64,000 bases of DNA. Source: an uncultured Candidatus Binatia bacterium (GTDB lineage: Bacteria > Desulfobacterota > Binatia > Bin18). Location: positions 1,955,328-2,019,327 of the forward strand of contig CBDBDK010000001.1 of NCBI GenBank assembly GCA_965203745.1, given 5' to 3'. Below are positions 5,884 through 64,000 of the stretch, piece after piece. The position numbers and the translations under genes are program-made. The notes below the pieces were generated by a model. It searched no databases. It saw only the letters and a list, made by a program, of their open reading frames with translations, and had not been told where the DNA came from. Each line of letters opens with the position of its first letter. The stretch's first letter is position 1.

Positions 5884-8508
5884 TCATTGGCCCACAATAA
5901 CCAGTGTCTGCTCGGCTGGATTGAGATAGGTATTGGCAACCCGTTGTACGTCCGTCTGCGTCACCTGCTGGATATGGTCGAGGTAGAGACGCCCATGCGT
6001 ATGCCCGAGGCCGTACAGTTCGTTGAAGGCCAATTCTTCAGATTGCGCGGCATTTGATTGGAGGGAAATCTCATAGCTGCCGGTCATATATTTCTTGGCC
6101 CGCTCAAGCTCGTCCGCCGTGACTTTCTCCTGGCGGAGGCGTTCCAACTCTGTTTGTGTGGCGATCACCGCTTCGTCCACGCTGCCTGGGTCTGTGCCCA
6201 AGTACACGCCAAACGTCCCTGGGGCGAGTCCTTCAACACTGAACGCGGTCACAGAATAGGCCAGGGCGCGCTGTTCCCGCACCTCATAGAACAGCCGCCC
6301 CCCTTGGCGAGACAGGATGGTATCGAGGACCTTCAGCGCATAGCGGTCAGGATTGTCGAGGGTGACGCCTTGGAATCCCAGGACCACGTGGGCTTGTCGT
6401 TTCTCCACTCTTTTGGTTGCGTTCCGCGCACCGCTTGGGCGAGCCTCTGGCGCTGGGGCAGAGGGTGGCGTGACTGCGGGGAGGCTCGATAATCCGGCAC
6501 TCAGGCGGTCAATCAGGTACGTCGTCTCAACGTCGCCAACAACACTCAGCACCAGGCGTTTAGGGTCGAGGAGGGTTTTGTAGTAAGTGGCAACCTGCTC
6601 TTGGGTCATGGCACCGATACTGACTTCGCTGCCGAGGGTCAGCAGGCGATAGGGATGCGTCTCGTACAAGGTCTGGTAAAAGAGATCAAACGCAATCTGA
6701 GCGAGATCATCTTCGCGATTTTTGAGTGCCAGTAAAATTTCACGACGACGTTTTTCTATTTCACCGGCTGGAAAAGTCGGGTGGAGTAGGGTCTCAAGGA
6801 AAATATCAATGCCTTCATCAACGTGGGTCGTGAGAAACGAGCCCGATAAGCCTAAGCTATTCCGTCCGGAAAAACCGTTTAAGCCGCCCGCCAACGATTC
6901 AACCGCTTCCGCCAGACTGAGGCGTGAGAACTGTTGGCTGCCACGAGTCAGCATGCCGGCAATAAAATTGCTGATGCCAGCGTTGTGTTCGCTTTCAAAC
7001 AAGAGGCCACCGAGCGTTGCCGCTTGAACTGCCATGACCGGAACGCCGTGGTGTTCCTTCACTAGCAGACGAACGCCGTTATCGAGGCGAATGGCTGTCA
7101 CCGCGCTGCCGCTCGCCCCGTTCGTTCCCGCTGAAGCGGCAGCCTTGCTGACCGGCTGGTCGAGGCGACGGCACAATTGTGTGATGTCCTCGGCGGTCGG
7201 GAGACTGGCGCCCTGCGTTTTCCCCAGGATGACGGCGTTGAGCCCGGTCGGAGAGAGGTATTGGCGTGCGACGCGCTGAATGTCCTGAGGTGTGACCGAG
7301 GCCAAGCCGTTGAGATAGCGCTGCTCATAGTCGGGGTCAGAGAAGACCGTGAGAAAATACCCCAGTTGGCGGGCCTGGCCTTGGACGGTTTCCCGTCGGT
7401 AAACAAAATCACTGGCTAAATTCGTTCGAGCCCGGTCGAGTTCTGCCTGGGTTACAGGCGTGTGTTTGTACTGGAAGAGCAGGGCCAAACTCTGTTCGAA
7501 CGCTGGCCGAATCTGCTCGTGTTCCAGGGCTGCCGCCAGGATGAACAGACCCGAATCGGCCGGCGTATAGGCACTGGCCGTAATCCAGTTGACCAATTCC
7601 TGTTCGGCCTGGAGCTTTTGGACCAGGGTCGAGCTTTCTCCGCCGCCCACGATAAAGCTGAGGAGGTCAAGGGCAAAAATATCTGCATGTTCAGCCGGCG
7701 GGAGAGGAAAGCCCATATACAGGTAGAACTCCTCGACGTTCATATCCACGATGGAGAGGCGCAGTTCGGTCTGGGCCGGTTCGGTCGGACGAGGACGGAC
7801 GGGAAGTTGCACGGAGGGGCTCTGGTCAAAGAGTCGTTGGACTTCTTGTCGAGCTTTTTCCCGATCAATATCTCCAACGATTACCACCGTCATATTATTG
7901 GGATGGTACCAGCGCTGGTAGAAGTGCACGACGCGCTCGCGATTGAGCGCTTCAATGGTTGCGCGATAGCCAATAATCGGACGACCGTACGGGTGCTGTG
8001 TATAGGCAACCTCAAACAGCTCGGTTGCCGCTCGCGTGGTGGGTGAATCCTCGCCACGCTTCCATTCTTCCATCACGACCTGGAGTTCTTTGTCCAGTTC
8101 GCGTGGATCAAAAGTCGAGTTTTGGATGGCATCGGTCAGAATATCGAGACCGTCTGAAAAATGTCGGGAGGCAAGGACGATGTGGTAGACGGTATGATCC
8201 GCAGTGGTAAACGCGTTGATGCTGCCACCGGATGATTCAATTTCAGAAGCGATGGCTCCGACCGGACGCCGCCGGGTACCCTTAAAGAGCATGTGTTCAT
8301 GGACGTGGGCGGCGCCGGCAACATCGGGAGTCTCATCCGCACTACCGGCCTTGACCCATATCTGGATGGCGACGACGGGCGCAAAATGGTCTTCTTGAAC
8401 GGCGACGCGAAGGCCGTTTTCGAGCGTAAAAAGAAGACGATCTGGATTCTGTTGCAGGTCGGTTGTGGGGTTCGAAGCGACGTTCGACATGGCCCCTCTG
8501 TGTTTCAC
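5884..8508 (-). CDS. M16 family zinc peptidase (pitrilysin-like, tandem M16 units)
   Basis: 874 aa. Inverted zinc motif HEHMLFKGT (HxxEH). The second half repeats the M16 fold. Confidence 0.8.
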   Translation of the reverse strand: MKHRGAMSNVASNPTTDLQQNPDRLLFTLENGLRVAVQEDHFAPVVAIQIWVKAGSADETPDVAGAAHVHEHMLFKGTRRRPVGAIASEIESSGGSINAFTTADHTVYHIVLASRHFSDGLDILTDAIQNSTFDPRELDKELQVVMEEWKRGEDSPTTRAATELFEVAYTQHPYGRPIIGYRATIEALNRERVVHFYQRWYHPNNMTVVIVGDIDREKARQEVQRLFDQSPSVQLPVRPRPTEPAQTELRLSIVDMNVEEFYLYMGFPLPPAEHADIFALDLLSFIVGGGESSTLVQKLQAEQELVNWITASAYTPADSGLFILAAALEHEQIRPAFEQSLALLFQYKHTPVTQAELDRARTNLASDFVYRRETVQGQARQLGYFLTVFSDPDYEQRYLNGLASVTPQDIQRVARQYLSPTGLNAVILGKTQGASLPTAEDITQLCRRLDQPVSKAAASAGTNGASGSAVTAIRLDNGVRLLVKEHHGVPVMAVQAATLGGLLFESEHNAGISNFIAGMLTRGSQQFSRLSLAEAVESLAGGLNGFSGRNSLGLSGSFLTTHVDEGIDIFLETLLHPTFPAGEIEKRRREILLALKNREDDLAQIAFDLFYQTLYETHPYRLLTLGSEVSIGAMTQEQVATYYKTLLDPKRLVLSVVGDVETTYLIDRLSAGLSSLPAVTPPSAPAPEARPSGARNATKRVEKRQAHVVLGFQGVTLDNPDRYALKVLDTILSRQGGRLFYEVREQRALAYSVTAFSVEGLAPGTFGVYLGTDPGSVDEAVIATQTELERLRQEKVTADELERAKKYMTGSYEISLQSNAAQSEELAFNELYGLGHTHGRLYLDHIQQVTQTDVQRVANTYLNPAEQTLVIVGQ

Positions 8509-52199: not shown

Positions 52200-53828
52200 A
52201 TGCACGGTAAACGCGGGTTCCGACCTGTAGTCAGTAGCGTCTTGGGTGGACTGTTACTCCTGGCGGTCTCGGCCAATATTTCTCCCTGTTACGGCTATTT
52301 CATGGACAAGCAGGTTGATAAGATCGTGAATGCCTGGTCACGCTTCGATCGTTTTCTGTCCACCTTTGATCCGGCCGGCCGCTACGTCCGCCAGCCCGTT
52401 GAACGGCAGGTCCCGGCCCTGACGTTCCGGGGCTTTCTCCGCCAGTGGTCCGATATCCAACTCTCGGGCGACCGCCGCGTCGGTAATCGACAGAAAGATT
52501 TCCGTTTTTCCCAGATGCAGAATCTGTTGGAATTGGAACTCCACTACCAAGTCTCACCCAATATCGAAATCACCAATATCAATAACTTCGTGTACGACAG
52601 CGTGTACAACTGGCAGGATTCTGCCGGTCTGTTTGCCCCCCGGACGAGCGAAAGCTTCCGCGCCTATCATAACTTCGAGCGTATCGTGCGCGAGTTATAT
52701 ATCAGCTATCGCACCCATAACCTCGACGTAGTCCTGGGCAAGCAGCAAATCGCCTGGGGCAAAATGGACGGCCAGTTTATTGACGTCATCAACGGCATGG
52801 ATAGACGCGAGTCCGTCCAGCTTGAGGCGAGCGACTACGAGTGGCGCCGGCTGCCGGCCTGGATGGCAAACGTGACCTATTTCTTTGGGGCAAATTCTCT
52901 CAACTTCCTGTGGATTCCGAACTTTGAGCAGGACCGCAATCCGGTTCCCGGCTCGCCGTGGTACTCGCCTCTGATTCCGCCTAGGGATACGGACACGAAA
53001 GCGATCCTGGACGGCCGGCAAGACGCGACCGGGGATCAGTTCAGAGAGACGAAGCGGCCGTCTACGGGCGACTTCGGGGACCATCAATACGGCCTGCGGC
53101 TTGATGTGTCCATGGAACCCCTCACCTGGGGTCTCATCTATTATTACGCCTGGAATAAAAACCCAACGTCCTTCATTGTTGACCGCGATATTGATGCTGC
53201 CGGAGACCCCTATCTGATCTTTCAGCCGCGTTTTACCCGCTTGCACCATCTGGGTATCACCGCCGACTATGCTTCCGCCCTCTCGAACATGCCGCTTGTC
53301 GGCGAACTGCCGATTGTGCTGCGGGTTGAGGGTTTGTGGACCAAAGACGTTCCCTTCGCCGACTTTGACCATCAGGATCGCGCACGGGACGGATATCTCA
53401 ACTCTGGGATCATTCGGCGTGACACCTTGCGGGCCGCGATTGCGCTGGAGTTCGCCTTTCCCGGTAATACCTCCGCGATTATACAGCCTTCCCTGTTGTA
53501 TACCTTTGACTGGCGTCGCAATCTCGGCGGTGGCTTTGGCGGAGGAATCGGAGATGAAATGAGCCTCCTTCCGGTTATGTTTATTGGACGTCCGTTTCGC
53601 TTCACCCGTGACCGTTTGCGCTTGGAGTTGACCGTCGTTCCAGTGATCAGTCTGCCGCAGAAGAAGTGGCAGGGCATAAAAACGAAATTTGTTTCGAGCT
53701 ATCGCTTTTCCCAATTTGTTACCGGTCGCCTCATTTATACGGCGTTCAGTAGCGGTGACCGGACTGACCTGTACGGTCAATATAATAAATGGGACAATAT
53801 CGGCTGGGAACTGAGCTACGAGTTCTGA
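52200..53828 (+). CDS. putative outer-membrane protein, DUF1302-like (signal peptide, C-terminal aromatic residue)
   Basis: 542 aa, signal peptide, a beta-rich low-hydrophobicity body, and the C-terminus ...WELSYEF (terminal Phe, an OMP signature). The family assignment is from memory of DUF1302/DUF1329 pairing. Confidence 0.5.
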   Translation: MHGKRGFRPVVSSVLGGLLLLAVSANISPCYGYFMDKQVDKIVNAWSRFDRFLSTFDPAGRYVRQPVERQVPALTFRGFLRQWSDIQLSGDRRVGNRQKDFRFSQMQNLLELELHYQVSPNIEITNINNFVYDSVYNWQDSAGLFAPRTSESFRAYHNFERIVRELYISYRTHNLDVVLGKQQIAWGKMDGQFIDVINGMDRRESVQLEASDYEWRRLPAWMANVTYFFGANSLNFLWIPNFEQDRNPVPGSPWYSPLIPPRDTDTKAILDGRQDATGDQFRETKRPSTGDFGDHQYGLRLDVSMEPLTWGLIYYYAWNKNPTSFIVDRDIDAAGDPYLIFQPRFTRLHHLGITADYASALSNMPLVGELPIVLRVEGLWTKDVPFADFDHQDRARDGYLNSGIIRRDTLRAAIALEFAFPGNTSAIIQPSLLYTFDWRRNLGGGFGGGIGDEMSLLPVMFIGRPFRFTRDRLRLELTVVPVISLPQKKWQGIKTKFVSSYRFSQFVTGRLIYTAFSSGDRTDLYGQYNKWDNIGWELSYEF

Positions 53829-53834
53829 CCGATT

Positions 53835-55187
53835 ATGAACGGGCGCTTTTTTTTCCTGACGATCTGGGCCTTGCTGTCCAGTCTGGCGTTCCCGGTCGCC
53901 GGGGCTGCCGAGCAGAACGGCGGTCCGCGCAAGACCTGGAAGACAGTAGAAGAACTGTCCGAGGCGGAAAAATCGCGCATTGATTTCCGGGTCGATACTC
54001 CCCGAGATGCCACGCTTCCGTATCTCCCGGCAGAGGCCTATCCCTTTCAGCCGCCCTATACCGCGGAAGAGATGGGCTATCGGGCCATGGAATTCCCCCA
54101 CATCGCCCGCTGGTCGCACGCCATGGCCGATGTGTTCGGTGCCATTACCAGCAACGGCTTCCTCGATGAAGGCATCACGTTGGCCTATAGCCACTATATG
54201 CCGGACGAGTATGGGGTGGCCGGCCAGCTCAGCGTGAGGCCGGGGGACGCCTATTTTCGAATGGTCTTCTTCTATACCTATCCGCCCGAGAACCAGGGTC
54301 TTCAGGACCTGTGGATCTTGAGACGGACGGACCAGGAGGAAACGACCAAACTGGACAATTTCATCTACAGTCCAAACCTGCGCCGCGTGCGCCGCCAGCC
54401 TCAGCCCCGCCGGGACGCGCGCTTCCCCAATAATGTCCAGACCTTTGACGATGTGGTAGGCCGCGACGCCTGGGAATTCTCGTGGCGCCTGCTGGGCACG
54501 GATGTGCTGTACGAGACGGTGCGTTTTCCCACCACCCGCCCAACGGTCACCCTGGCCAAGCCCGACGGGAGTTTTTATACGGTCCCGTCGGACCAGATTA
54601 AAATGCTGGGCGACACCTATTCGCACTATACGGCGGACGGCGGCGTGGCCTGTTATGTGGTTGAGGCGACTCGGCGGGAAGACTGGCTGCCCCATTACCG
54701 TATGAGCCGGTTGATATACTGGTTCGATCAGCACGGCTTCTATCCGCTGCGTATCGAGCAGTACGACAATGATAATCAACTGCGGATGATTGAGGTCCGA
54801 AACGCCTCTCTGGCCAACCCGGCCCTGGAAGAACGCGGCTATGCCGGCTTATTCACGCTCTATTACGATCTCGCCCTCGACCTGATGAGCTATAGCGCCC
54901 ACGACGCCCACTGGGTGAAGGAGTGGGCTCCAGAAGACCGAGAGACGATGTTTGAGCCCGACTTCATGCGTCGCAGTTGGCTCAAGTATCCACTCAAATC
55001 CCAGTCCCTGGTGTATTCTCCGGAGAAATTCTTCCTCCGCCCACACCTGTATCCAGATAAGTTTCCGCAAGACCGAAACGTTACTATCCCCACAGAGCTA
55101 GCCCAGCGCTACCGTTTGCAAGAAGAAGCCGGACATCTCGTCTTCGACAGTTCCTCTCCGCTCATTGAGGTCAAGGCGCCAGAGTAA
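53835..55187 (+). CDS. DUF1329-like periplasmic/OM-associated protein, paralog 1
   Basis: 450 aa with a signal peptide. Strongly similar to the next ORF (RKTWKTVEELSEAEKSRIDFRVDTPRDATLPYLPAEAYPFQPPYTAEEMGYRAMEFPH). Confidence 0.5.
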   Translation: MNGRFFFLTIWALLSSLAFPVAGAAEQNGGPRKTWKTVEELSEAEKSRIDFRVDTPRDATLPYLPAEAYPFQPPYTAEEMGYRAMEFPHIARWSHAMADVFGAITSNGFLDEGITLAYSHYMPDEYGVAGQLSVRPGDAYFRMVFFYTYPPENQGLQDLWILRRTDQEETTKLDNFIYSPNLRRVRRQPQPRRDARFPNNVQTFDDVVGRDAWEFSWRLLGTDVLYETVRFPTTRPTVTLAKPDGSFYTVPSDQIKMLGDTYSHYTADGGVACYVVEATRREDWLPHYRMSRLIYWFDQHGFYPLRIEQYDNDNQLRMIEVRNASLANPALEERGYAGLFTLYYDLALDLMSYSAHDAHWVKEWAPEDRETMFEPDFMRRSWLKYPLKSQSLVYSPEKFFLRPHLYPDKFPQDRNVTIPTELAQRYRLQEEAGHLVFDSSSPLIEVKAPE

Positions 55188-55195
55188 GGACCTCT

Positions 55196-56542
55196 ATGGC
55201 TCTCCGCGCGCAACAGTTCTTGTGGCTCGTTGTTTTCTGCCTGCTGTCTTCCGGTAGCATAGGGGTCGCGATTGTGGCGGCAGACCAAAGCAGTCTGATC
55301 TCACGGAAAACCTGGAAAACGGTTGCCGAGCTCACGGCCGAAGAAAAGAATGCGCTGGACCTCCGTAGTGATACGCCGCGGGATGCAAACGTCCCCTATC
55401 TGCCGGCCGAGTCCTTTCCGTTTCAACTCCCTTATACGGCTGAAGAAATGGCACTGCGAGCCATGGAGTTCCCACACTCGCCATTCTGGGACTGTGTCCT
55501 GATCGATATGGCTTTCTCGGTGACGAACTCGGGATTTATGGATCAGCGTGTGACGCTTATTCCCATCCTGTATTTTCCCGAGAATGGGTTCGGAGAACAT
55601 CTGTATGCCGCCCAGCCCGGCCAGGAAATCTATCGCTGGCTCTCCCAAAGCGTCTCTCCACCCGAACGGTATGGGAATCAGACCTTATGGATAGGCTATC
55701 GGACGGATCAAACGTTCCGGACGAAAATAGACATGTTTGCCTATTCCCCATCGCTCCGGCGAATCCGTCGTCAGCCCCAACCGCGCCGGGAAGACCGCTT
55801 ACCCAATAGCGCGGCAACGTTCGATAATTTGATCGGACGGGACGCCTGGGAATTCTCGTGGCGCATTCTCGGGACGGATATTTTGTATCAGACGGTGCGT
55901 TTTCCCAAGACGCGCCAAACCGCCGTGCTGACCGACGAAAACGGGCGGTATGTTGAGGTTGCCGCCAAAGACCTCTCCCTCATGGGTAAAGAATATCCGC
56001 TCTATACCGCAGACGGTGGAGTCAAATGCTTTGTGCTTGAAGCCATACCAAAGGCCGAATGGCTACGTGACTACTACGCCCATAAGCTGATTTACTGGGT
56101 TGACCAATATGCATTCTTTCCCTTGCGGATGGAAGAATATGACCGACAGGGGCAGTTGAGTTTTGTGAATACCCGGATTGCGACCCTGGCCAATCCAGAA
56201 CTTCAGGAACATGGCTATGCGGTCCAGTTTGACCTGTGGTGGGACGTGTCTATTGATTTCCTGTCCGCTTCGATCCACGGTTTTGTCCCGCAAACTTGGT
56301 CAGAGGAAGACAAAAAGATCTTCTTCAGCTCTGGATTTATGCGCCGCGAATGGTTCCTGGTGCCGCCCAAGGGTTTGATGAGTCTCAACTCGCCGGACGA
56401 ATTCTATCTGCGACCTCCACTCGAAGAGGAAAAATTCCCGGCCTCGCGCTCTATCGATTTGCCACCTGAAGTGCGGGCCTTGATTGAGGCCCAGGAGCGC
56501 GAGGGCAAGCTGGTATTCGAGGAAGGGCGGGGAGACGGCTAA
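55196..56542 (+). CDS. DUF1329-like periplasmic/OM-associated protein, paralog 2
   Basis: 448 aa with a signal peptide. Co-linear paralog of the previous ORF (RKTWKTVAELTAEEKNALDLRSDTPRDANVPYLPAESFPFQLPYTAEEMALRAMEFPH). Confidence 0.5.
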   Translation: MALRAQQFLWLVVFCLLSSGSIGVAIVAADQSSLISRKTWKTVAELTAEEKNALDLRSDTPRDANVPYLPAESFPFQLPYTAEEMALRAMEFPHSPFWDCVLIDMAFSVTNSGFMDQRVTLIPILYFPENGFGEHLYAAQPGQEIYRWLSQSVSPPERYGNQTLWIGYRTDQTFRTKIDMFAYSPSLRRIRRQPQPRREDRLPNSAATFDNLIGRDAWEFSWRILGTDILYQTVRFPKTRQTAVLTDENGRYVEVAAKDLSLMGKEYPLYTADGGVKCFVLEAIPKAEWLRDYYAHKLIYWVDQYAFFPLRMEEYDRQGQLSFVNTRIATLANPELQEHGYAVQFDLWWDVSIDFLSASIHGFVPQTWSEEDKKIFFSSGFMRREWFLVPPKGLMSLNSPDEFYLRPPLEEEKFPASRSIDLPPEVRALIEAQEREGKLVFEEGRGDG

Positions 56543-56563: not shown

Positions 56564-57679
56564 TTACTGCGTCTCGTGCGTGGCCTGCCAGGCGCGGCCC
56601 ATCGAGTCCGCGGCCAGAATGGCGTCGGCAACCATGTCGGGCTGCACGTCAAACGGCTCGTTATGGATGGTTTCGCCTTCGGCGGTCGCCCGCGTTGCTA
56701 CTTGTTCAAGCACGTCCTCAGGGAGCTCGGTGAGCCCGATCTCGGTCAGGGTGATAGGCAGGCCGACCGCGGATGAAAACTCCAGCACCGGATCGATAAC
56801 CGAGCGTGGCTGCCCTTCGAGCACCAACTGGGCCATCAGGCCGTAGGCGACTTTTTCCCCGTGATAATACGGGTGGGTGAGCGGGGCTGCGGTGAGGCCA
56901 TTGTGAATGGCATGGGCTGCGGCAAGACCCGAGGACTCGAAGCCTAAACCCGACAGCAGGGTGTTGGCTTCGACCACCCGCTCCAGGGCAGGATTGACAA
57001 CATTTCGTTCCACGGCCCGTTTGGCATCCGGGCCGTCTTCAACCAGGATATTGCAGCACAGCTCTGCCAGCTTTTCGGCGCTGCGCGTTGAGGCTCCACC
57101 ACGCATATTCTGGACGTGGCCGGCAACACAGGTTTTAGCCTCGAACCACGTAGCCAGCGCATCTCCCATCCCTGCCACAAGCAGTCTGGCCGGAGCTTGG
57201 GCGACGACATAGGTGTCCACAACAACCAAATCAGGGTTTTTTCGATAAAAGCGATATTCCTGGAACACTCCCTCGGGGGTATAGATCACCGACAGCGCGC
57301 TGCACGGTGCGTCGCTTGAAGCAATGCTTGGACAGTTAACGACGGGAAGGTCGAGGTCGTCCGCCGCTGCACGGGCCGCATCCAATACCTTACCGCCGCC
57401 CGCTCCAATAATAACCTGAGCCTTATTCTCCCGTGCTGTTTCTTTGATACGTTGGATTTCGGGATAGGAGCATTCCCCTCCGAACTGGTGGACGACGTGG
57501 GTGATGCCGGCATCGTTCAAATGTTTCTGCCAGACTTCTGAGAGCAGCCGAATGGCACTTTTCCCGGCAACGATACAGGCAGGCCCCTGTAGACCGATGC
57601 GCTGCATTTCCGTTCCTAGGGCTGCGGTGGCGTGTTTCCCCTGTACATAGTGGCTTGGGGCTGAAAAAACTGAGAGCAT
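56564..57679 (-). CDS. iron-containing alcohol dehydrogenase family (glycerol dehydrogenase GldA-like)
   Basis: GGGKVLD (GGGS-type) NAD motif and the metal-ligand region of group III ADH/GldA. 371 aa. Confidence 0.8.
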   Translation of the reverse strand: MLSVFSAPSHYVQGKHATAALGTEMQRIGLQGPACIVAGKSAIRLLSEVWQKHLNDAGITHVVHQFGGECSYPEIQRIKETARENKAQVIIGAGGGKVLDAARAAADDLDLPVVNCPSIASSDAPCSALSVIYTPEGVFQEYRFYRKNPDLVVVDTYVVAQAPARLLVAGMGDALATWFEAKTCVAGHVQNMRGGASTRSAEKLAELCCNILVEDGPDAKRAVERNVVNPALERVVEANTLLSGLGFESSGLAAAHAIHNGLTAAPLTHPYYHGEKVAYGLMAQLVLEGQPRSVIDPVLEFSSAVGLPITLTEIGLTELPEDVLEQVATRATAEGETIHNEPFDVQPDMVADAILAADSMGRAWQATHETQ

Positions 57680-57839
57680 ACATCCCTCCTTACCAAGTGC
57701 TGTTCCCGCAGATAGAGCAGGGTGAGAGCTTTTGCAGTATAAACTGAGACGTGTTGACGCGGCAAGCAGGAGAGGGCCAGTGGGACAAGCGGAAGACGCT
57801 ACGGTTCGGCAGAGAACGCTGCTTCTCTCAATCTCATCC

Positions 57840-57862
57840 GATATATCAGGTTCGGATATATC
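57840..57862. repeat. two copies of the palindrome GATATATC 15 bp apart, upstream of an extended -10 (TGCTATAAT 57882-57890)
   Basis: GATATATC at 57840-57847 and 57855-57862. TATAAT at 57885-57890 lies 7 nt before the ATG at 57898. Confidence 0.5.
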
Positions 57863-57897
57863 TTCCCGCTTTTGGTTCGAGTGCTATAATTGCCGCC

Positions 57898-59847
57898 ATG
57901 GCACGTACCCCTAGCGACCTTCCCGAAAATAAGGACGAAAGGGAAATTTTCTATCTACTGAAAGGGCGCTTGGACGACGAGTGGGTCTTCTGGCATGAAC
58001 CGGACCTGAAACGCTCCTACGACGACTCCAATCCCTATCGCCCGGACTTCATCCTGCTGCATCCCAGACGCGGGCTGTTTGTGCTGGAGGTCAAAGGATG
58101 GAATGCCTCCAGTATCCTGGACGTCAAGAAGAAGCAGCCTGATGACTTCGATAAAGGCAAGCAGATCGACAAGGTGCTGTACAAATTCGGCACCGGCGAC
58201 GAATGGGTTACCGCCCCTTTTGACCAGTTGAGGAATTACACCAGTTGGGTCAGGAATAGGTTGAAAGAACTGCCCCAGGTTAGCGGCAAGAAGGCCAACA
58301 AGCTGTTCAAGGGGGCGGTGTGTTTCGTACGGATTGCCAAAGACGATATCAGCGCAGGCGACCTTCTCAACTCCCATCTGGGTGAGTTACGCAAGGGCGT
58401 CCTGACCGGTAAGAGGAAGAGCGAGCAGGGATACTACGAGGGGGATTACCGACGCTGGAGAGCGCATCCCAACGAACTGCAACAAAGTCTTGCTGCCTCG
58501 CCGGATGAAGACCTACAACTCGATAAAATCTACGTCCAGATTCGGCAGATCATCCATCCAGAGTCCGTCATATCGATATTCTCTCCATCAGAGGCCGACA
58601 AGACAGACTCCAGCGAGCAGCGCCCGGAACCGGCAAGCTGTGTAGAGACGGATACCGAACCCCTCCCATGCATTCTTGACCTAGACCAGGAAGAAGTAGC
58701 CAAGGGGCACATCGGTCGAGGGCATCGTATTCTTTTCGGCGTCGCCGGTTCCGGTAAGACCGTAATCCTGATCGCCCGCGCCCGTTATCAGGCAATGCGT
58801 CACCCGGAACAGCAAATCCTTGTGCTGTGCTATAACAGGACGCTTTTCTGCTACATTGACGATGTCCTGAAGGCTCACCCGAACATTGACGTAAACACTT
58901 TTCATTCTTGGGCTCAGTCCGAATTCTCGAACTATTGGGACTTCACCGAAGACGAACGCGACAAGAATCTGCTGATACATCTGGAGCGGAAAGGGGTCAA
59001 GAAACAGTACGACTGTATCCTGATCGATGAATCCCAGGACTGGGATATCGCTTGGTTCAAGGCGATTCTGCATGCGGCCAAAGATGCGGAGGAGGGGGAT
59101 ATGCTGATCGTCGGCGATGGCAGCCAGTCCATCTACGCCAGGCAGCAGGGCTTTACCTGGAAGGCTTGTGGCATCAAGGCCAGGGGGCGGGTGATCAATC
59201 GTCGAGGCGGCAAAGTCGATACCTTCAGGAACTATCGTAACACGCCCGAAATCGTCGCACTGGCCACTTCCTTCGCCCAAGGTCTCATCTCGCAAAAGAA
59301 CACTACCTCCGAGGACGGTATGATGTCCCTATTGCCCGAGGCGAAGGACTGCGGCAAGCGGCCGAGCCACATTCTGCCGGTTATCTGCCGAGCCAAGAGC
59401 GAAGGGACCGAACTGGCCCTCGTCCATAAAGAAATACGGCACCTCCTAGAAAAGAAGCTGGTGACCCGACGCAGTGACATCGCCGTCATTTACCCTCGTG
59501 GTGACCGTGGGAAACGGCAGGACACACTGCGTAAGTTGACCAACGACCTGAACCGGCTTTACCGGACGGACTGGATCAGAGGAGGCCGGGTGAGGAATCA
59601 AGATAAAATACTAGTTGACACCATCAAAATATCCAATGTCTATCAAATCAAGGGACTGGAGTTTAAGGTGTGCTTCGTGGTCTTGGCAAACGATTTCTAC
59701 GACGAAGAGGGAGAACTTCTGTATGTGGCCTTGACCCGAGCCCAGGAGCGTCTCTACGTGACCCATCATAGGGACACGTTCCTGACTGGGAAACTGACTT
59801 CCGATATGACCCTCTATACGGATCAATTTCTTTTCTCTATGGCTTGA
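57898..59847 (+). CDS. NERD-domain (PD-(D/E)xK nuclease) / UvrD-like SF1 helicase fusion protein (Nhi-like candidate defence protein)
   Basis: NERD motif RPDFILLHPRRGLFVLEVKGW at the N-terminus. SF1 motifs follow: I GVAGSGKT, II IDESQD, III VGDGSQSIY, V KGLEFKVCFVV, VI VALTRAQERLYV. Confidence 0.75.
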   Translation: MARTPSDLPENKDEREIFYLLKGRLDDEWVFWHEPDLKRSYDDSNPYRPDFILLHPRRGLFVLEVKGWNASSILDVKKKQPDDFDKGKQIDKVLYKFGTGDEWVTAPFDQLRNYTSWVRNRLKELPQVSGKKANKLFKGAVCFVRIAKDDISAGDLLNSHLGELRKGVLTGKRKSEQGYYEGDYRRWRAHPNELQQSLAASPDEDLQLDKIYVQIRQIIHPESVISIFSPSEADKTDSSEQRPEPASCVETDTEPLPCILDLDQEEVAKGHIGRGHRILFGVAGSGKTVILIARARYQAMRHPEQQILVLCYNRTLFCYIDDVLKAHPNIDVNTFHSWAQSEFSNYWDFTEDERDKNLLIHLERKGVKKQYDCILIDESQDWDIAWFKAILHAAKDAEEGDMLIVGDGSQSIYARQQGFTWKACGIKARGRVINRRGGKVDTFRNYRNTPEIVALATSFAQGLISQKNTTSEDGMMSLLPEAKDCGKRPSHILPVICRAKSEGTELALVHKEIRHLLEKKLVTRRSDIAVIYPRGDRGKRQDTLRKLTNDLNRLYRTDWIRGGRVRNQDKILVDTIKISNVYQIKGLEFKVCFVVLANDFYDEEGELLYVALTRAQERLYVTHHRDTFLTGKLTSDMTLYTDQFLFSMA

Positions 59848-60916: not shown

Positions 60917-61489
60917 ATGAGACGAGCCCGCCGAATCTCCTCTCTTCTCGCTGTTGTAGCGACGCTTTGCCTAGTGCTTCCCGTGTCATCCTGGGCACAT
61001 CGGGACAGAGGTCCCGGAGACCCATGCCGACGGGAGGTCGGGGCTTCGCTCTTGCATATTACGTTTTATCAAACGCAATTTGACCCGGTCACGGAGTATT
61101 GTGAAGAAATCCCGCGTGTGGGGAACGCCTTCCTGGTCGTGGACGTGACGCCCGATCTGTGGGAAATGCCGTTCGGTGTTGAACTCGTTGCTGCAGATGA
61201 ATCCGGACAGTCGAGTACGATCCTGTCCCTGCCTTTCCAAGTATATGAACGTGGCGTGGCCAACACTGAGGTTGTCGTGAAAGCGGGACTGCGCTACGAA
61301 GTGCGTGTCCTACTCGGGCTTGCGGAGGAACGCGAACCGCGCAAATTTTCATTTCCCTTTCAGGTTGCCGCATGGTATAAGGCCTTAGTCGGACCGGCGC
61401 TGATTGCCCTCGGGGTGGTTATCGTTCTTGCAGTCTCGGTGATTCGTTATAGGCTCACTGATCAGAGTAGAGAAGAACTGGCGAAATAA
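60917..61489 (+). CDS. hypothetical secreted protein with C-terminal TM anchor, immediately upstream of CuMMO operon (PmoD/CopC-like candidate)
   Basis: Signal peptide ends SSWA|H, so mature residue 1 would be His. Cys/His/Met-containing periplasmic domain. C-terminal helix ALVGPALIALGVVIVLAVSVI. Confidence 0.4.
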   Translation: MRRARRISSLLAVVATLCLVLPVSSWAHRDRGPGDPCRREVGASLLHITFYQTQFDPVTEYCEEIPRVGNAFLVVDVTPDLWEMPFGVELVAADESGQSSTILSLPFQVYERGVANTEVVVKAGLRYEVRVLLGLAEEREPRKFSFPFQVAAWYKALVGPALIALGVVIVLAVSVIRYRLTDQSREELAK

Positions 61490-61539: not shown

Positions 61540-62388
61540 ATGGCTCAGGCGCAAGCAGTACAAAATGCACCAAAAGGTTCCGGCGATGGTTCCATGACAA
61601 CTGGCAATCCCGCCAATCCGACTGATTGGTCAGTCGGCTGGCATCCTCTCTTCTGGGGGTGCGGGCTGATCATGCTGGCGAATGTCTTTTTCTGGTACTG
61701 GAACTACGCCTTTATGTTCACTGCCGGACTGAACTCAGCAAGCGCTGAATTCACGATGTATTACTGGACGCTGTTCTGGGGTGAATTGATTGTCTTAGGC
61801 GTATTCAGCGGAGTATGGTTGGGCTGGCTCATCCGGAATGGCCGGGCCATTCAAGGACAGGAATGCTCACCCGCCGAAGAAACGCGCCGGATTGCGATTT
61901 TGTGGAGCCTCGTTGGCGCGACGAGTCTGGCTATCTATCTGATGGCCAGCTTCTGGCCGAACTGGGATGGGTCGTGGCACCAAACCATGGTTCGTGACAC
62001 GGCATTCACCCCGACCCACATCCCGATGTTTTATTTTTTCTTCCCCCTCTCGGTTGTGTTGGCCGTCGGGACCTATATCTACGGGCGGTTCCATATCCCC
62101 GCGCTGTACGGAAAAGACAAGGGATTTCCCTGGTCGTTCTTTCTGCTGATCAGCGCCTGTGTACTCGAATGCATGGCAGTCGCTGCCAATGAGTGGGGCC
62201 ATAGCCTGTGGATATCTGAAGAAATCTTCTCTGTTCCGTTTCACTGGCCGTTTGTGATTTACGGCTGGCTTGCGGCGGGTATGTTTGCGGTGTGGGGCGA
62301 GACGCTAGTGCGCATGTTCGAGATAGAGAAGATCGAAGAGGATACCAACCCGGAAGCCTCGCTTGAGTCGCCGATCGCCGCCGATTAA
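61540..62388 (+). CDS. xmoC: copper membrane monooxygenase subunit C (PmoC/AmoC family)
   Basis: Matches PmoC/AmoC conserved blocks: SWHQTMVRDTAFTPTHI (cf. GTWHQTIVRDTDFTPSHI), NEWGHSLWISEEIF (cf. NEWGHTFWFMEELF), VPFHWPFVIYGW. GAGGAGG RBS. Confidence 0.85.
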   Translation: MAQAQAVQNAPKGSGDGSMTTGNPANPTDWSVGWHPLFWGCGLIMLANVFFWYWNYAFMFTAGLNSASAEFTMYYWTLFWGELIVLGVFSGVWLGWLIRNGRAIQGQECSPAEETRRIAILWSLVGATSLAIYLMASFWPNWDGSWHQTMVRDTAFTPTHIPMFYFFFPLSVVLAVGTYIYGRFHIPALYGKDKGFPWSFFLLISACVLECMAVAANEWGHSLWISEEIFSVPFHWPFVIYGWLAAGMFAVWGETLVRMFEIEKIEEDTNPEASLESPIAAD

Positions 62389-62451: not shown

Positions 62452-63255
62452 ATGGCGACGGAAACCACCACCGTAACCGACATCGCAGATGCGGCGGAAC
62501 GGCAGAGGCGGCTTGAACTCAAAGAACTGCTCAACAAGAAATATAAGTGGGTTGATTGGAAGTGGGATCTTGTTTTCTGGACCACGGCAGTTTTCGTGGT
62601 AGCCGGTGCCGCTGACATCACCAAGCAGTTGTTTGCCGGTGACTGGGATTTCTGGACGGATTGGAAAGACCCACAGTGGTGGCCAGTAGTCACGGCCTTT
62701 GCCACCATCATCATCCCCTCGACGCTGCAATACATTCAGTGGACGGCTTGGCGCTTTCCGACTGGTGCGACCTACACCGCGTGTTGTTTGTTTTTTGCGG
62801 CCTGGGTTGGGCGGTATTTCCAGTGGGACCTCGCGGCGACCTACCCTATGAACTTCGTGTGGCCTGCCTCCGTCGTTTGCGCCGGGATTTTGATGGACTG
62901 GACCTTAATGAAAACCAAGAGCTTCATCCTCACCTCGTTGATCGGGGCTCATGTGTGGGCGATTGCGGTGTGGGCCTATAATTACGTTCCCTTGGCTGCC
63001 TTTCTCCAGCCGGCCCATTTTATGGATCATGTGGTGACGGTTGCTGATGTTCAGGGCATTGCCTATATCCGCTCTCAAACCCCGGAATACCTTCGGCTGA
63101 TTGAACGCGGCGCGTTGCGGAGTTTCCTGGGTGAGACGCAATACGTTTCGCTGGCCTTTGGCGGAACGGCGGCTTTTGCTGGCTACTGGATCGGTCAATT
63201 TATTGGCCGGTATCTGGCAGTGTGGCCGATTCGGCGCTATCTGAAAACTGTATGA
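62452..63255 (+). CDS. xmoA: copper membrane monooxygenase subunit A (PmoA/AmoA family)
   Basis: AGDWDFWTDWKDPQWWPVVT (cf. AmoA [20 protein letters not shown]). Also FPTGAT, YPMNFVWP, LMDWTL, QTPEYLRLIERGALRSF. Confidence 0.9.
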   Translation: MATETTTVTDIADAAERQRRLELKELLNKKYKWVDWKWDLVFWTTAVFVVAGAADITKQLFAGDWDFWTDWKDPQWWPVVTAFATIIIPSTLQYIQWTAWRFPTGATYTACCLFFAAWVGRYFQWDLAATYPMNFVWPASVVCAGILMDWTLMKTKSFILTSLIGAHVWAIAVWAYNYVPLAAFLQPAHFMDHVVTVADVQGIAYIRSQTPEYLRLIERGALRSFLGETQYVSLAFGGTAAFAGYWIGQFIGRYLAVWPIRRYLKTV

Positions 63256-63274
63256 GACGAATATGAGGTGCGGT

Positions 63275-63616
63275 ATGTCTTTCGAACCTCAGCAGCTCGC
63301 CGGATACGGAAGAGTCTGCTCTGTGCTCATGGCTCTTCTTGCCGGCCTGTCTCTGTTTCCTTCCCCCGTGTATGCGCACGGTATGAATATCTCTGAAATA
63401 GCCCCGCCCGTCATGACCGCAGGCGTTTTGGCGTTTGTGTGTTACTGGCTGGTGGTTTTGTGGCCGGCGTCGAAGGGTGTGGAGACGGACGGACGCGGAT
63501 CGCCGGAAACGGACCGGATTATTCGCATCAAGCGCAAGCCCCGCCTGCGCGTCATAGAAACCAAGTCTCAGCTCCCGGACGAACAGCCCGAACCCAGGAG
63601 AGCGGCGGATGGCTAA
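63275..63616 (+). CDS. small membrane protein encoded between CuMMO A and B subunit genes
   Basis: Signal peptide ends VYA|HG. One TM helix (VMTAGVLAFVCYWLVVLWPA). Basic/Pro-rich C-terminal tail. An alternative start is at 63263. Confidence 0.4.
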   Translation: MSFEPQQLAGYGRVCSVLMALLAGLSLFPSPVYAHGMNISEIAPPVMTAGVLAFVCYWLVVLWPASKGVETDGRGSPETDRIIRIKRKPRLRVIETKSQLPDEQPEPRRAADG

Positions 63617-63626
63617 GCGATTCGTG

Positions 63627-64000
63627 ACTGGCAGTGAAAGAGTAAGCGTGTCCTCCAATAGATATAAGATGCTGGGCACGTTTACTCTTTTTGGCGTGCT
63701 ATTCGTACTGGCCGTTGTTGCTGCCAATACGCCGCACGCCTTTGCTCACGGTGAGGCTGCCGACGAACCGTTTTTGAAAAACATGACCACGGCTTTCTTC
63801 AATGTCAGCGTGTCGCCGACTGAAATTGAGGTTGGAGAGCCGGTCAAGGTTACGGGGTCGGTCAAGATTCTCGAAACCTGGCCGCATACGCTGGAAACAC
63901 CGGAAATCGCTTCTATTATGCCGGTCGTTCCCGGACCAGTCTTTGTGCTCAAAGAGCGTTTTGTCAATGGAACGGCTGCGATCGGATCGTTCTTTGCCCA
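63627..64000 (+). CDS. xmoB: copper membrane monooxygenase subunit B (PmoB/AmoB family), 5' part (runs off window)
   Basis: Signal peptide ends AFA|HGEAADEPFL (cf. PmoB mature N-terminus HGEKSQAAF). WPHTLETPE and PGPVFVLKERFVNG (cf. PGPVFIRKESYIGG). Open to the window end. Confidence 0.75.

Follow-up and report, generated by a model that had tools for sequence, protein, structure and literature searches.

A small membrane protein encoded between xmoA and xmoB is a candidate fourth subunit of a divergent copper membrane monooxygenase in Candidatus Binatia

A divergent copper membrane monooxygenase (CuMMO) operon fills, on the + strand, the last 2.5 kb of the 64,000-nucleotide (nt) stretch of DNA studied here (the window; contig CBDBDK010000001.1, from an uncultured Candidatus Binatia bacterium). 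The slot between its xmoA and xmoB genes (the A-B slot) holds a small open reading frame (ORF) that we name xmoX, or X. We propose, from sequence and with a probability of about 0.5, that XmoX is an operon-encoded supernumerary fourth subunit of the monooxygenase, perhaps binding copper through its N-terminal His. An earlier note on this DNA, in which the same frame was called ORF113 and read from ATG 63275, had suggested either a fourth CuMMO component or an assembly factor. Conservation, linkage and purifying selection support that suggestion; between a subunit and an assembly factor, sequence does not decide.

We gathered 80 related loci from XmoA relatives in one-genome-per-species GTDB contigs. 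Nearly all are labeled Candidatus Binatia or Binataceae, or bear older Deltaproteobacteria names, and their XmoA proteins are 73-99% identical to that of the window. Conservation in related CuMMO loci was among the checks proposed in the earlier note, and it is what we found: 76 of the 80 loci have, between xmoA and xmoB, an intact same-strand ORF of 70-146 amino acids (aa) with a shared core motif. Of the other four, three have an apparent frameshift and one lies at a contig end. In the three frameshifted loci (L045, L079 and L080) the X frame is broken and motif remnants are readable in another frame; these breaks are likely sequencing frameshifts in long-read metagenome-assembled genomes, the alternative being that the genes are pseudogenes.

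The way in which xmoX diverges is that of a coding sequence. Protein identity for X drops from 92% to about 25% while XmoA remains above 73%, and the ratio of nonsynonymous to synonymous substitution rates (dN/dS) is 0.18-0.35 for xmoX and 0.01-0.06 for xmoA. Thus xmoX is under purifying selection, with a constraint much looser than that on xmoA. Substitutions among close relatives number 108, 81 and 262 at codon positions 1, 2 and 3, respectively, and the GC content of xmoX by codon position agrees with that of the adjoining genes. ORF length alone is not significant here, because chance ORFs of more than 100 aa are plentiful in window DNA (~57% GC); these include an antisense ORF of 175 aa, which is open in just 17 of 77 loci and so is not conserved. 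We take xmoX to be a real gene because of its conserved frame, its dN/dS and the excess of substitutions at third positions.

The gene occupies 63275..63616 (+ strand; 113 aa plus stop) and is present as a single copy in the whole window. A longer version of 117 aa (63263..63616, +) would begin at an alternative ATG, 63263; ATG 63275 is the likelier start because GAGG precedes it at a spacing of 6 nt. The signal peptide, single transmembrane helix and basic, Pro-rich tail described in the earlier note are all borne out by the sequence-predicted features, for which we calculated motif statistics over 188 distinct members of the X family (the defining pattern itself includes the His). The precursor has the hallmarks of a Sec and signal peptidase I substrate, namely a basic n-region, with K or R in 98% of the 188, and a hydrophobic core. 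Residues 1-34 (MSFEPQQLAGYGRVCSVLMALLAGLSLFPSPVYA; 63275..63376, +) form the predicted Sec signal peptide, which signal peptidase I would cut after VYA (VYA|HG). Small residues at -3 and -1, the von Heijne rule, are the classic signal peptidase I pattern. Accordingly conserved in the family are residue -1, Ala in 188/188, and residue -3, which is A, V, G or T in 184/188, with position -2 variable (H, Y, L, F, Q and others). By the -3/-1 rule, then, the signal peptide is probably cleaved directly before the His.

The mature protein would start with a periplasmic stub, HGMNISEIAPP (63377..63409, +), that opens with His-Gly. The His at +1 is invariant also in unbiased alignments, not just in the pattern-defined set, and Gly at +2 is found in 179 of the 188 members (95%). 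Further along the stub, Glu is conserved at 80% and the Pro-Pro pair at 85% and 97%; stub length is 11-13 residues in the family and 11 in the window. The mature consensus runs H-G-(G)-M-x-G-P-D-E-L-G-P-P, a 19-residue helix, S-x-K/R and a basic tail. The single hydrophobic helix of mature XmoX (PPVMTAGVLAFVCYWLVVLWP) gives the predicted transmembrane segment at 63410..63466 (+; VMTAGVLAFVCYWLVVLWP), between P-P and W-P. Its 19-residue core pattern is T-S…L…F-x-C-Y-W…L-W-P, with conservation of T at 74%, S/A 95% combined, L 82%, F 70%, C 71%, Y 97%, W 95%, L 91%, and the end W and end P both 99%. The helix is as conserved as the stub, and because this extends to its polar and aromatic positions, the helix probably packs specifically on another membrane protein rather than serving as a simple anchor.

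The predicted cytoplasmic tail (63467..63613, +; 49 aa) has a net charge of +3, with 12 K/R, 9 D/E and 5 Pro, and includes the clade-specific motif IRIKRKPRLRVIE. In alignment A1, which covers the window's clade, K86, R87, K88, P89, R90, L91 and I94 are invariant (KRKPRL-x-x-I). The tail is variable in other subclades, and in many Binataceae it is short (~15 residues) and unrelated; the median net charge of family tails is +7. By the positive-inside rule the topology is probably type I, N-out/C-in. The AlphaFold2 monomer (predicted local distance difference test, pLDDT, 58) is helical at residues 6-27 and 39-70 and disordered in the tail. XmoX matched no Pfam or NCBIfam family at E ≤ 0.1, and when all PDB chains were searched with the X profile (A4; hmmsearch), there were 0 hits at E ≤ 10.

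The position of xmoX relative to xmoB suggests joint expression. The xmoX stop overlaps the xmoB ATG within 8 nt (63609..63616, +; ATGGCTAA), a possible case of translational coupling. Of the 75 loci scored, 30 have this -8 overlap (ATGGnTAA), and within the window's clade (L001-L022) it is missing from only one locus; many of the remaining loci have an X-xmoB overlap of 4 nt or a spacing within ~50 nt. On the + strand we saw no terminator-like or promoter-like sites from A through X to B. The arrangement fits co-transcription of xmoA-X-B with coupled translation. The start of xmoB has two candidates, ATG 63609 and the internal ATG 63669. Read from ATG 63609, xmoB has a 20-aa N-terminal insertion (ERVSVSSNRYKMLGTFTLFG) relative to most relatives, an insertion also present in L002 and L010. 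In insertion-bearing genomes the true xmoB start may be ATG 63669, which would abolish the overlap with the X stop.

Across the family, X is linked almost exclusively to the junction of xmoA and xmoB. We searched the X profile against 1.84 billion representative proteins (E ≤ 1e-3) and found only 90 matching clusters, all with the same core. A metagenome scan seeded solely with X motifs (from the Binataceae alignment subset A5) yielded 60 loci, and in 60/60 xmoA and/or xmoB immediately adjoins X where the contig permits, 53 of these having both. Divergent X members that came from the profile search, and that lie beyond the reach of the indexed search, likewise occupy the A-B slot: gene order is C-A-X-B in L081, A-X in L082, A-X-B in L083 and C-A-X-X'-B in L086 and L087, X' being an X paralogue. 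The tandem X paralogues of L086 are at 6001-6288 and 6305-6619, between xmoA and xmoB, and L087 is arranged likewise. CAxB and CAxxB orders in Binatota, with x a "hypothetical protein", were reported from 8 genomes by Murphy et al. 2021 (PMC8262859). That x is the same gene as xmoX, and the tandem duplication in L086 and L087 explains the published CAxxB order. The earlier note had suggested an unrecognised component, which is right in that x was left without analysis in that study but wrong in that it had been recorded there; what we add is the family, its predicted topology, the identification of xx as a tandem duplication, and occurrence outside Binatota.

Two such occurrences have X in the same slot. 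The cultured Bacillota species Caldinitratiruptor microaerophilus (XmoA 71% identical to that of the window) has an 87-aa homologue there (…LALA|HGG…helix; hmmsearch E 1e-9), and a further metagenome lineage (L094; XmoA 65%) has one of 81 aa (E 1e-11). Literature searches on Caldinitratiruptor and on Khadka et al. 2018 turned up no mention of intervening ORFs, and a search under hmoD/emoD-type gene names returned nothing relevant. In L092 (XmoA 71%) A and B are adjacent and X is absent. Adjacent A and B genes, spaced by 1-23 nt and with a small gene 3' of B, occur in Carbonactinospora (XmoA 66%), Lentzea (65%), a Dormibacteraeota contig (68%) and L093 (59%). The products of these post-xmoB genes (L089:7145-7372, L091:7048-7338, L090:6230-6550 and L093:6235-6558) all combine a single helix with a basic tail and lack a true signal peptide; three of the four show 'M-x-x-[IV]-x-L-A-H-G-G…', and the Dormibacteraeota version reads '…FLHSGGG'. 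The actinobacterial proteins share a conserved RQMFDGxYxW motif, and an indexed search from an actinobacterial post-B protein returned only 6 relatives. Alignment of the X profile (A4) to the post-B profile (A3) with hhalign gave a probability of 33% and an E of 4.6e-4 over 37 columns spanning AHGG…helix. The post-B 'LAHGG' proteins, which resemble X in architecture, may be homologues of X in a new position or its analogues. We also observed a stand-alone X member of 74 aa (P0088; L084:6001-6225 and L085:5975-6199; …VADA|HRGFGPAELGLP…CYWIVMLWP), whose copies sit between M18 peptidase and fatty-acid oxidation genes with no CuMMO gene within 6 kb.

As a fourth subunit, XmoX would act as follows. 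The gene would be co-transcribed with xmoCAB and, in the window's clade, coupled to xmoB translation through the stop/start overlap. Sec would export the precursor, and signal peptidase I would cut after A-x-A to leave a free N-terminal His-Gly, by the same route that gives the copper-binding N-terminal His of PmoB/XmoB (…AFA|HGE). The conserved short helix would pack on the XmoC/XmoA membrane domain, and the product, made alongside XmoC, XmoA and XmoB, would remain bound to the monooxygenase. The stub would set the His and the conserved Glu at the periplasmic membrane surface, where copper ligation would be possible, and X could then either cap or complete one of the enzyme's copper sites or deliver copper to the enzyme. 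In pMMO (particulate methane monooxygenase) the CuB site lies only ~10 Å above the membrane, a distance within the span of an 11-13-residue stub. The basic cytoplasmic tail would be a lineage-specific part of the protein. For cleavage, topology, complex binding and copper binding alike, this is what we infer. In favour of the reading, besides conservation and linkage, are the copper-rich setting of the operon (described below) and the supernumerary single-helix subunits of pMMO and of bacterial and archaeal AMO, which offer a precedent.

Several observations weigh against this proposal. The canonical copper ligands of XmoC and XmoB are all present. X has only one invariant His, its invariant columns being A, H, P and W, and so cannot form a histidine brace alone; the Met near its N-terminus is not invariant. 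The dN/dS of X is about ten-fold above that of xmoA, and conservation in the tail is poor. In a few cases a copy stands alone with no CuMMO gene nearby (P0088 in L084/L085), and some close relatives have no A-B insert (L092, with 71% XmoA identity; Actinobacteria; Dormibacteraeota). Lastly, the AlphaFold2 monomer is of low confidence (the pLDDT of 58 given above) and uninformative on partners.

The same features can be read as those of a transient, membrane-tethered copper-loading or assembly factor, in which the His (with Glu or Met) passes copper to XmoB or XmoC and X then leaves. An invariant, processed His-Gly and a conserved Glu would suit this role, in a core enzyme that already holds all of its own ligands and in the copper-rich operon described below; stand-alone copies and relatives lacking the insert would fit dispensability and action in trans, and the constraint on X is looser than that on the core subunits. 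However, the gene lies amid structural genes and is stop/start-coupled to xmoB, suggesting near-stoichiometric synthesis, and a simple tether would not need the polar and aromatic conservation seen in the helix. Moreover the copper proteins known to be linked to CuMMOs (PmoD, CopC/CopD and SCO1) have folded domains of at least 100 aa, whereas the X stub has 11-13 residues. We consider a transient factor somewhat unlikely. Distinctly less probable is that X has no metal role and is a membrane-organising or regulatory partner whose helix attaches to the enzyme or to lipids, whose basic tail promotes array formation, bends the membrane or reaches a partner in the cytoplasm (e.g. an electron donor), and whose His-Gly is kept for docking or processing. 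The strongly basic family tails (the median of +7), the invariant KRKPRL-x-x-I of the window's clade, and the array formation proposed for pMMO and ammonia monooxygenase (AMO) supernumerary helices by their discoverers are all consistent with such a partner. But the tail is the least conserved part of X, down to ~15 residues in many Binataceae, and the His-Gly…E…PP stub is the most conserved, while signal peptidase cleavage does not require a His at +1.

A last objection is that xmoX is non-functional, the gap being a non-coding spacer or regulatory region that is open by chance. Long chance ORFs are indeed frequent in this GC-rich DNA, and X has no database family matches. Against this, frame and core peptide are kept where synonymous sites are saturated (dS > 1.5), third codon positions carry more than their share of substitutions, the antisense frame lacks such conservation, and 90 protein clusters have one common motif; the chance reading is effectively refuted. 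Returning to the fourth-subunit reading, we can extend it to a general but doubtful proposal: that in Binatia, in Caldinitratiruptor and its kin, and perhaps in Actinobacteria through the post-B 'LAHGG' proteins, CuMMOs resembling hydrocarbon monooxygenase (HMO-like) are four-subunit enzymes with the processed His of X in or beside a copper centre. We regard this extension as unlikely. If this is true, a peptide of 75-130 aa that annotation has overlooked would contribute part of a site for catalysis or copper delivery. The unidentified densities seen in native pMMO/AMO at CuB and next to PmoC could then be modelled on X, whose gene is defined.

The unit to which xmoX belongs, xmoC-A-X-B, opens with xmoC (61540..62388, +; 282 aa; Pfam AmoC, E 1e-42). 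There follow xmoA (62452..63255, +; 267 aa; Pfam AMO, E 1e-52), the 5' neighbour of xmoX, and the 5' part of xmoB (63609..64000, +; Pfam Monooxygenase_B, E 2e-16), which continues beyond the window end. Against NCBIfam AmoA_BACT xmoA scores 193 bits (cutoff 290), and xmoC, xmoA and xmoB all fall far under the NCBIfam equivalog cut-offs for bacterial Amo/Pmo subunits; because of these sub-cutoff scores we class the enzyme of the window as a divergent CuMMO, not a canonical pMMO or AMO. The earlier note gave a 370-nt gap between A and B: the ORF does lie in the gap, but it measures 353 nt if xmoB starts at ATG 63609 and 413 nt if it starts at ATG 63669. Its remark that A and B are usually adjacent agrees with the other operons examined (L089-L093), where the gap is 1-48 nt. 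The translation of window xmoC has the copper ligands D…H…H and N…H…H, and in XmoB the HGE and HxH pair are present, as read in L081 and L086. The XmoB signal peptide ends AFA|HGE, the same A-x-A|H-G pattern as in X. A replacement by X of a lost copper ligand was considered and rejected, the ligand residues of XmoC and XmoB being present.

Further genes around this unit also appear related to copper. Directly 5' of xmoC, an ORF at 60917-61489 (+) encodes 190 aa (a predicted signal peptide, …SSWA|HRDRGPGDPC, that leaves an N-terminal His, then a ~130-aa domain and a C-terminal helix) and is kept in 57 of the 80 loci. The architecture of this protein is like that of PmoD/AmoD/AmoE, yet it matched no Pfam or NCBIfam family. 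A paralogue lies directly 3' of xmoB (L003:8466-9020, …GAWG|HGGVAMDLDPC). In the related locus L003, past the point equivalent to the window end, follow a 564-aa multicopper oxidase with a C-terminal helix (L003:9079-10773; 32 loci) and a 241-aa protein (L003:10784-11509; 31 loci) that also has a C-terminal helix, together with a His-rich N-terminus (HETHHHTHH) and the type-1-copper-like motif HCDVPQHMEKGM. The operon has unusually many predicted periplasmic copper proteins with a membrane anchor. Farther upstream in the window are three genes for DUF1302 and DUF1329/LolA-like outer-membrane-associated proteins (52200-56542, +), an iron-containing alcohol dehydrogenase (56564-57679, -) and a NERD-UvrD helicase (57751-59847, +). 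The alcohol dehydrogenase could act on the product of the monooxygenase.

The composition and active site of CuMMOs have been disputed for decades, and the extra single-helix subunits of pMMO and AMO emerged only in 2023-2025. To these X would add something new, an operon-encoded, signal-processed, His-tipped small CuMMO partner that appears akin in outline to the known helices and a member of none. The gene is kept across a large uncultured clade whose members, in soils and sponges, are thought to consume methane or short alkanes; the invariant N-terminal His predicted to result from processing is of the kind by which subunit B binds copper. A testable question follows, namely whether a fourth subunit is needed for assembly, copper loading or activity in this class of CuMMO. 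The answer would be relevant to heterologous CuMMO expression, which is notoriously difficult, and Caldinitratiruptor microaerophilus, being cultured and having a homologue, is a possible test organism. As to annotation, xmoX is nowhere named, and short or frameshifted copies are readily missed.

Among known systems, operon-linked copper proteins invite comparison. PmoD-type proteins have a ~120-aa periplasmic cupredoxin-like domain before a C-terminal helix. Like them, X is operon-linked, apparently exported and anchored by one helix; PmoD, AmoD (orf5) and AmoE (orf4), the operon-linked copper proteins of Fisher et al. 2018 as cited in PMC8262859, are implicated in copper handling or assembly. 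Unlike them, X lacks a periplasmic domain: in the mature protein just 11-13 residues precede the helix. The PmoD architecture is better matched by the 60917-61489 protein and its post-xmoB paralogue than by X.

Archaeal AMO has the extra subunits AmoX, AmoY and AmoZ (PMC10030591). AmoX was proposed from synteny with amoA and amoC and later supported by blue native polyacrylamide gel electrophoresis and cross-linking (PMC10030591). It resembles X as a small membrane protein of a CuMMO gene cluster, and the argument for X is of the same synteny type. The two differ in that AmoX belongs to another domain of life and another CuMMO clade and is biochemically supported, where X is sequence-based.

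Supernumerary helices are also known from bacterial enzymes: a 23-residue peptide in the pMMO of Methylocystis sp. Rockwell and a 46-residue ORF in N. europaea AMO (PMC11725843). N. halophila AMO has extra subunits "AmoD" and "AmoE", and the counterpart of the N. europaea 46-residue ORF is named "AmoD" there (PMC12804982). These helices adjoin subunit C, and they are unannotated ORFs that were traced in the genome from the cryogenic electron microscopy map (PMC11725843, PMC12804982). Array formation has been proposed as their role (PMC11725843). The available structures for XmoA relatives are of pMMO and AMO only, with none for the CuMMO clade of the window. X is small and single-pass like these helices, which have been shown or, like X, are proposed to lie beside the core trimer, and it shares its predicted N-out/C-in orientation with the Rockwell peptide (whose orientation is itself inferred). 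Unlike them, X is operon-internal, begins with a signal peptide predicted to be cleaved off before an invariant His-Gly, and has a basic tail that is long; it has no detectable sequence similarity to them (profile against all PDB chains, their structures included).

Finally, the N-terminus of X can be set beside copper sites built on an N-terminal His, namely CuB of PmoB/AmoB and the histidine brace of lytic polysaccharide monooxygenases and CopC. In pMMO structures the mature N-terminal His of subunit B is a CuB ligand, and in M. capsulatus pMMO in native membranes an unidentified density extends to the CuB site (PMC11725843). The known sites add at least one His from a folded beta-sandwich, whereas X has neither such a domain nor a second invariant His; the His found at -2 in some members is variable and would be removed with the signal peptide. 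Because X has no second conserved His, any histidine brace that includes it would need completion by another subunit. What X would have in common with these sites is their starting point: the predicted cut falls right before the invariant His, leaving its amino group and imidazole free.

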